Part shown: piece by piece, positions 6,804 to 7,020 of the stretch
Numbering within the stretch: the first letter of the stretch is position 1
Layout: each line of letters opens with the position of its first letter
Source: a virus
Taxonomy: Duplodnaviria > Heunggongvirae > Uroviricota > Caudoviricetes
Strand: one strand, 5' to 3'
DNA length: 19,652 nucleotides
Virus record (IMG/VR): IMGVR_UViG_3300027836_000006
Notes under the pieces: generated by a model
What the model was told of the DNA's origin: nothing
Databases searched by the model: none
Seen by the model: the letters and a program-made list of their open reading frames with translations, nothing else
Position numbers and translations under genes: made by a program

Positions 6804-6953
6804 ATGCAATCGAATTTTAAACATCAACAATTTAATACGATGCCCACACTGGCAGGCGTTATAGCCTCTAGTTGGTCGACGATTAATTGTGGAAGTTTAT
6901 CATATGATCGTACACCAGAGATTATCAGGGTCCGGGAGGGCTGGGATGGTTAA
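6804..6953 (+). CDS. putative attenuator leader peptide (49 aa)
   Basis: MQSNFKHQQFNTMPTLAGVIASSWSTINCGSLSYDRTPEIIRVREGWDG, between promoters and terminator; weak RBS. Confidence 0.55.
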   Translation: MQSNFKHQQFNTMPTLAGVIASSWSTINCGSLSYDRTPEIIRVREGWDG

Positions 6954-6986
6954 GTAACAACTTAATTACATTTCAAAACTTCAAGG

Positions 6987-7020
6987 ACCCTAGGATTAAA
7001 AACCCTAGGGTTTTTTGTTT
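6987..7020 (+). terminator. Rho-independent terminator with competing antiterminator
   Basis: accctagg/cctagggt hairpin plus T tract; agggtcc (6927-6933) complements ggaccct (6985-6991). Confidence 0.8.

Follow-up and report, generated by a model that had tools for sequence, protein, structure and literature searches.

A candidate leader-peptide attenuator containing all 20 amino acids at the head of a phage tRNA array

Introduction

The question raised by the locus described here is what a strong intrinsic terminator is doing between a set of tandem consensus promoters and a large array of phage tRNA genes. Whether phages control the expression of such arrays at all is, to our knowledge, not established. 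The locus is found in a DNA stretch of 19,652 nucleotides (nt) from a virus of the Caudoviricetes (IMG/VR record IMGVR_UViG_3300027836_000006), the whole of which is referred to below as the window. Promoters and terminator enclose a short open reading frame (ORF) of 49 codons. The original prediction, made from the letters of the window alone, took this arrangement for a leader-peptide attenuator which, rather than sensing one amino acid, could report the loss of almost any tRNA and switch on the replacement tRNAs carried by the phage.

Comparison of the window with more than 200 related leaders speaks for such a general sensor on four counts, which are the open frame, the pairing within the switch, the position at the array and the content of all 20 amino acids. 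We consider it likely that a ribosome-mediated transcription attenuator stands here at the front of the phage tRNA array. It would be on by default, be turned off by timely translation of the leader and respond to slow decoding whatever the codon class. If this is true, the presence of a strong terminator between tandem consensus promoters and the array is explained.

Anatomy of the leader locus

All elements of the locus lie on the forward strand. The three strong promoters proposed for this region are indeed present and are of the sigma70 type: TTGACA-17-TATAAT at 6533..6561 with 12 of 12 consensus matches, TTGACG-17-TATAAT at 6617..6645 with 11 of 12, and a third site at 6717..6745, again with 12 of 12, whose -10 element ends 58 nt before the ATG of the leader. 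A 5' terminal stem-loop of the leader transcript is predicted at 6756..6774. In alignments the sequence of this stem varies among relatives and its complementarity is kept, and it is probably an RNA-stabilising hairpin. It is followed by an A-rich translation start region (6788..6803), which has a weak Shine-Dalgarno sequence (GAGA), as had been noted from the start, and whose sequence, GAGAAAACAAA-ATG, is conserved among relatives.

The leader ORF (6804..6953) starts with ATG and has 49 codons plus a TAA stop. A recount agrees that the peptide contains all 20 amino acids and is written with 34 distinct codons, including TCG, ACG, CCC, ATA, AGG and CGG. The first 39 codons (6804..6920, from Met to the Glu of the motif DRTPE) are taken as the sensing part of the ORF; all 20 amino acids already occur within them, upstream of the antiterminator. 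Codons 42 to 49 and the stop fall in the 5' half of that antiterminator.

The antiterminator is a hairpin of three tiers. Its outer stem is formed by AGGGTCC (6927..6933, codons AGG GTC CGG) and GGACCCT (6985..6991), the latter overlapping the 5' arm of the terminator. The two segments are reverse complements, and the heptamer occurs nowhere else in the 19.6-kb window. The 7-base-pair complementarity on which the original prediction was built is thus real, and it turns out to be only the outer stem of a larger structure, with a middle stem (6936..6982, in which GAGG at 6936-6939 pairs with CTTC at 6979-6982) and an apical hairpin (6942-6975) that encloses the stop codon at 6951-6953. The intrinsic terminator occupies 6987..7021 and consists of a stem (6987-6994 with 7004-7011), a 9-nt loop and the run T6 GT4. 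At its core CCCTAGG (6988-6994) pairs with CCTAGGG (7004-7010), and the stem has 8 base pairs plus at most three more A-U or G-U pairs. It was not picked up by a consensus scan because of its 9-nt loop.

The locus therefore contains the parts expected of a leader-peptide attenuator, namely a promoter-proximal ORF, an intrinsic terminator, an antiterminator exclusive with it and an overlap between ORF and switch. Its control codons are unusual in that they comprise all 20 amino acids with no run of any one codon.

Taken alone, the window gives figures which are suggestive only. The segment 6752-7034 folds better than its shuffles with a z of -5.7, and 6900-7020 with a z of -4.1. The chance of finding all 20 amino acids in 49 codons is about 3%, that of at least 34 distinct codons about 2%, and the window leader reads 26 of 29 phage anticodons (P about 1%). 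The leader also favours codons that the phage's own genes seldom use (index 0.57 versus 0.74 +/- 0.075, the 1.3rd percentile). These tail events of 1 to 3% have to be seen beside the fact that all 20 amino acids are also present in 6 of the 68 small ORFs of the window. One small ORF of 51 amino acids with the full set lies at 1043-1198 and, given that frequency, is probably due to chance. The decisive support comes from the relatives, of which there are more than 200.

The leader family and its genomic position

Relatives were collected in four ways. A 23-mer from the 3' end of the ORF matched nine viral contigs, and a scan with a peptide pattern gave 87 relatives, 80 of which were retrieved, 59 of them distinct. 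Searching 1.84 billion cluster representatives with a profile returned 93 clusters with proteins of 43-73 amino acids, and a scan with the RNA motif only (GGTCC ... AAGGACCCYRGG ... CYRGGGTTTT) found at least 120 contigs, with 78 further distinct peptides among the matches listed. The family comprises more than 200 distinct leaders, all from uncultured large phages, the phage of the window included. Among 50,697 phage records no cultured relative was found by blastn with the window, which had no nucleotide match there, or by tblastn with the peptide. The Ro60-like protein encoded in the window shares no more than 48% identity with proteins of T4-like and jumbo phages. Gene callers and source databases annotate the leader proteins solely as "hypothetical protein", and the leader peptide has no match to a Pfam or PHROG family. 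In Rfam no hit was obtained for 6400-7500 at the gathering threshold, and at E up to 10 only chance-level hits appeared, the best with an E of 1.6 and a score far short of gathering.

The genomic position of the leader is invariant. A tRNA array on the same strand is found by ARAGORN a few hundred bases downstream in 33 of 33 loci. Array statistics were drawn from the 42 distinct loci for which the sequence extends 10 kb downstream: the arrays have a median of 32 tRNAs (range 20-41) and start 462-1176 nt after the ATG of the leader; all 20 specificities are covered in 20 of the 42 loci and 19 in a further 15. Upstream of the leader there is no tRNA in 38 of 42 loci. Near-consensus promoters, one to four in number and mostly two or three, are present within 450 nt upstream in all 57 distinct relatives considered for this feature, and the distance from the -10 element to the ATG has a median of 58 nt, the same as in the window. 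The tRNA array thus has the leader element at its head.

Two competing folds

On the full alignment of 339 columns RNAalifold recovered the terminator and otherwise just fragments, since the apical hairpin is variable and is misaligned by MAFFT. Leaders were therefore folded singly, each up to the terminator loop, and the outer stem was counted on a trimmed alignment. Folded in this way, all 59 distinct leaders form the three-tier hairpin. The outer stem GGGTCC/GGACCC is often lengthened by ATT.. pairing with ..AGGATT, by which the whole 5' arm of the terminator is sequestered; the middle stem is GGAG/CTYC, and the apical hairpin, of variable sequence, surrounds the stop codon.

The original prediction pointed to related phages for conservation of the pairing, and there the pairing is both kept and covarying. 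In the trimmed alignment 98.8% of the outer-stem cells are paired. Two pairs change on both sides, one from A-U to G-C in 12 sequences and one from C-G to U-A in a single sequence, and no A-C mismatch occurs. The covariation score of the outer stem is 0.119, compared to 0.068 +/- 0.008 in shuffles, none of 500 of which reaches 0.119, and sliding the partner strand by one column lowers the pairing to 58-60%. The terminator covaries as well: one of its pairs occurs as U-G, C-G and U-A, and in two relatives (L033 and L080) the stem has been rebuilt with compensating changes.

Both folds compete for CCC(T/C)AGG, the 5' arm of the terminator. The mean energy of the antiterminator is -28.1 kcal/mol and that of the terminator hairpin -14.1 kcal/mol, and the minimum-energy fold of the full-length sequence mostly retains the antiterminator. 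Since the antiterminator dominates when no ribosome is present, the default state would be read-through.

The stop codon, which is TAA in 58 of 59 leaders, is paired or lies inside the hairpin. It is placed 14-18 nt past the 5' strand of the outer stem in 56 of 59 leaders and 17-32 nt before the 3' strand. A ribosome protects about 12-15 nt 5' of the P site, and its helicase acts near +11. By these distances, a terminating ribosome would occupy the two inner stems, middle and apical, while its trailing edge would reach the outer strand and GGACCC would be left free, which fits the direction proposed, that is, termination upon timely translation.

The same geometry bears on the idea that the logic is reversed, with translation promoting read-through as in the pyrBI type, or that the folds do not act on transcription but govern processing or stability of the RNA. 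The long hairpin could be a substrate of the RNase III type, and a stable leader RNA of about 265 nt, having a hairpin at its 5' end and ending in a terminator, could itself act as a small RNA; attenuator-derived small RNAs are known, one being reported as rnTrpL (PMC6614838). Against these ideas, the stop codon is separated by 17-32 nt from the 3' strand of the antiterminator, where the terminator stem begins, so that a ribosome terminating there cannot mask the terminator. In addition, the contested bases are exactly the 5' arm of the terminator. We regard these possibilities as very unlikely.

Selection on the reading frame

The frame of the leader is open in all 59 relatives ascertained by peptide and in all 112 ascertained by RNA motif among the matches listed. 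In the 59 relatives the alternative frames are closed, with stops in frame +1 in 57 and in frame +2 in all. The distance from the ATG to GATCG (Asp-Arg), both of which are invariant, takes five lengths, 93, 96, 99, 102 and 105 nt, every one a multiple of 3. An internal control is given by the distance from GATCG to GGACCC, which spans the stop codon and takes 13 lengths falling in all residue classes (20, 26 and 13 sequences). Evolution thus suggests that the ORF is translated.

These observations leave little room for a structured non-coding RNA in which the ORF is incidental. What such an RNA would account for is the strong nucleotide conservation from 6906 to 7016, synonymous sites included. 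It would not account for a frame open in all 171 relatives, for insertions and deletions which are only in-frame upstream of the stop, or for the closure of the other frames. RNAalifold on the codon-aligned ORF core found no conserved fold or helix (-1.0 kcal/mol), so that the core is not a structured RNA, and there is also no Rfam family match. Of all the alternatives considered here, this one has the least to be said for it, and we give it hardly any weight.

The peptide sequence itself is weakly constrained, as expected of a leader. The ratio of nonsynonymous to synonymous substitution rates (dN/dS) is about 0.63, and the entropies of the three codon positions are flat (0.65, 0.49 and 0.67). 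After DRTPE the nucleotides are read in different frames among relatives, giving RVRE, PGSQE or QGSRR; as the frame changes there over fixed nucleotides, it is the RNA and not the protein which is conserved in this part.

This last point is relevant to another explanation, by which the ORF is an autonomous gene for a micro-protein of 49 amino acids, hairpin and terminator serve to finish its mRNA and make it stable, and transcripts of the array come from leak-through or from other promoters. Such a gene would agree with the conserved positions in the peptide (W, DRTPE and AKQ-G-FMP-YW), with a dN/dS below 1, with the hypothetical protein listed by gene callers and with the promoters present inside the array. 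It is hard to reconcile with a C-terminal part which is frame-shifted over fixed nucleotides. Nor is it expected that the hairpin, twice as stable as the terminator, should compete with it rather than stack on it, that the gene should always stand at the head of an array, or that the peptide should belong to no Pfam or PHROG family. The amino acid content discussed below weighs further against a micro-protein.

All-20 amino acid content

The content of all 20 amino acids was analysed in 147 family peptides of 42-55 amino acids. The full set is present in 118 of them and 19 amino acids in another 26. As a null model, peptides were simulated along the family tree with column-specific frequencies, fitted rates and independent columns in 300 runs; here the number of complete peptides was 33.7 +/- 10.5, with a maximum of 67. 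The core from Met to DRTPE, on average 37.8 residues long and located upstream of the antiterminator, is complete in 97 of 147 leaders, compared to 15.7 +/- 7.0 in simulations, and to 20.5 +/- 8.1 (maximum 43) when the root is forced to be complete. Independent draws of 38 residues are complete in 0.5% of cases with the family composition and in 2.3% with a uniform composition.

The amino acids in question are not tied to fixed sites. Exactly one Cys is present in 118 of the 147 peptides, distributed over 24 columns; a single His is found in 126, over 15 columns, and a single Tyr in 104, mainly in two alternating columns. Peptides found by the RNA motif are complete in 57 of 78 cases among the matches listed, the complete ones including some of 42-43 amino acids without the family motif DRTPE, and in the viral set nearly all leaders are complete. 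It is the set of amino acids that is kept, not their positions, and this compensated relocation indicates that the all-20 property is selected as such. The original prediction asked whether codon diversity persists in related phages despite divergence of the peptide; for the amino acid set this is borne out, as 118 of 147 keep it in full and single codons change column.

We know of no protein function which requires every amino acid within about 38 residues. A content of all 20 amino acids in such a short segment, selected across columns and outlasting the loss of the motif, is therefore counted against the micro-protein, which we regard as unlikely.

A further alternative is that the leader is a sensor of translation capacity, which registers no more than the presence of a ribosome behind the polymerase and would respond to ribosome shortage, a block of initiation or a defence targeting translation, the all-20 content having some other cause. 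With read-through as the default and no protector hairpin found, any failure of translation would open the switch, as this explanation says, and leader and array are not matched for Cys. A plain coupling sensor, on the other hand, needs no particular codons, and it leaves unexplained that single Cys, His, Tyr and Lys codons relocate with compensation and that complete leaders exceed what tree-aware simulations yield. We hold this explanation to be improbable as well.

Proposed mechanism

In the attenuator that we favour, the strong early promoters would start a leader RNA of about 265 nt. A first ribosome that moves promptly over the 49 codons would melt the 5' half of the antiterminator and come to sit on the stop codon in the apical hairpin. 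Its trailing edge would abut AGGGTCC, GGACCCT would be left free, the terminator would form and the polymerase would stop at the T run. If the ribosome is delayed within the first 39 or so codons by a scarce aminoacyl-tRNA, or is never loaded, the three-tier antiterminator would fold first and take the 5' arm of the terminator, and the polymerase would read through into the tRNA genes. The outcome would be phage tRNAs on demand, the demand arising from loss of tRNA by host shut-off or by anticodon nucleases.

A stronger version makes the leader a universal sensor of decoding speed. A pangram of about 38 codons would poll every class of charged tRNA in a single ribosome pass, any failure would de-repress the complete tRNA set of the phage, and the whole would be a built-in answer to host tRNA decay and to anticodon-nuclease defences. 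To this version we give about even chances.

Several observations weigh against the proposed attenuator. The perfect promoters at 10835 and 11787 give the distal array a way around the switch. Neither a protector hairpin (the anti-antiterminator, 1:2) nor a pause hairpin was found in the ORF core, from which it follows that termination would depend wholly on a tight coupling of ribosome and polymerase that is presumed for these hosts; a protector or pause hairpin defines the trp type and not the whole class of attenuators. The Shine-Dalgarno sequence is weak. As to the content of the leader, 29 of 147 leaders are short of at least one and at most three amino acids, Cys (14) and Val (8) being the ones most often missing, and 8 of 42 arrays show no tRNA-Cys within 10 kb though their leaders hold Cys. 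Within the sensing part Glu is encoded just once, 6 nt before the outer stem, and a ribosome stalled at that codon may mask the antiterminator. Lastly, a pure codon sampler does not require the conserved W, the DRTPE motif or the invariant codons AGT, GAT and GAG, and a dN/dS of 0.63 leaves room for a function of the peptide. Part of the former conservation may be explained by CCAGAG, which in many leaders is able to pair with the 3' arm of the terminator.

Comparison with known leaders

The closest known systems are the leaders of amino acid operons (trpL, hisL, leuL, thrL, pheL and the multivalent ilvGMEDA leader). As in the phage locus, a short ORF lies close to the promoter and an intrinsic terminator precedes the genes under control, their antiterminator shares bases with the terminator, and the position of the lead ribosome picks the fold, with an upstream stall resulting in read-through. 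They differ in carrying runs of one to three cognate amino acids, whereas in the phage leader each amino acid is represented by a single codon or a few, and in controlling biosynthetic enzymes instead of tRNA genes. In addition, their 1:2 protector or pause hairpin makes absence of translation lead to termination; in the phage leader no such hairpin is detectable and the default would be read-through. The phage leader also has its stop codon inside the antiterminator, and it matches no Rfam leader family.

T-box riboswitches are similar in being terminator/antiterminator switches that report tRNA status and control genes of translation supply. A T-box binds one uncharged tRNA through its specifier loop and T-box bulge and has no ORF, whereas in the phage leader an ORF is selected and sensing would take place through the ribosome over all amino acids. 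The T-box family (RF00230) of Rfam was not matched in 6400-7500, either at the gathering threshold or with E values up to 10 allowed. Drug-sensing and arrest leaders (ermC, cat and vmlR; tnaC) likewise have a short ORF on which a stalled ribosome remodels the downstream RNA and activates a gene whose product eases the difficulty in translation. These depend on a specific nascent peptide together with a ligand or drug and on one stall site, unlike the phage leader, where any of about 39 codons would serve. The spacing of the conserved W...DRTPE in the leader presumably does not match that of TnaC.

No description of such a pangram attenuator of a tRNA array was found in the open-access literature. 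If the proposal is true, no control of tRNA genes through leader-peptide attenuation would have been described before, and no earlier attenuator would report on every amino acid instead of on one to three. It would offer a testable link of phage tRNA arrays with tRNA-depleting host defences or with host shut-off, and the element, of about 265 nt, would be a compact natural reporter for slow decoding at any codon class.

The tRNA array and neighbouring features

The array of the window (7479..15796, forward strand) comprises 36 tRNAs by ARAGORN and further ones by Rfam, and with both methods it covers all 20 specificities. One of the genes added by Rfam is a tRNA-Tyr (GTA) at 11232-11313, which is part of the array. 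The segment 8206-8290 is scored by Rfam as a tRNA-Sec with 47.6 bits, the gathering score being 47; it is a class II tRNA-Ser (UGA) missed by ARAGORN, with the anticodon loop CUUGAAA.

Two perfect sigma70 promoters are located inside the array at 10835-10863 and 11787-11815. The distal tRNAs accordingly have promoters of their own and are not gated by the leader alone; by itself the switch gates only the first 3.8 kb or so. The proposal that the leader switches on the replacement tRNAs is supported in that the leader heads the array, and has to be narrowed to this proximal part as far as sole control is concerned. Further perfect or near-perfect sigma70 consensus promoters are found at 14162, 15925 and 18134.

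Between the terminator and the first tRNA there is a small ORF of 49 amino acids (7035..7184, forward strand) with a strong Shine-Dalgarno sequence (AAGGAGAATATG). It would be the first product of read-through, only some of the relatives have it, and nothing in Pfam or PHROG matches it. At 7190-7300 there is a second conserved element, from AAAGTGTGAATATACAGGAAACGAGGTCC to ...GGAGCAAACGGGCGG. This AAAGTGTGAATATACAGGAAACGAGGTCC element stands directly after the terminator in some relatives (L004, L005 and L007) and behind the small ORF in others, and it may be a small RNA of Ro60-handle type.

A tRNA with the anticodon CTA, labelled Pyl by ARAGORN and looking like an amber suppressor, is found at 957-1030, 6 kb upstream of the array and beyond the reach of the attenuator. 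In one relative (L083) the stop of the leader, at about 1650, is a TAG followed by an in-frame TAA, which could matter in the presence of an amber suppressor tRNA. In a metagenomic phage contig (L090) ARAGORN reports a permuted gene resembling transfer-messenger RNA at 4961-5493, with the tag VKTDMLIAVSAV, about 1.3 kb upstream of a leader ORF.
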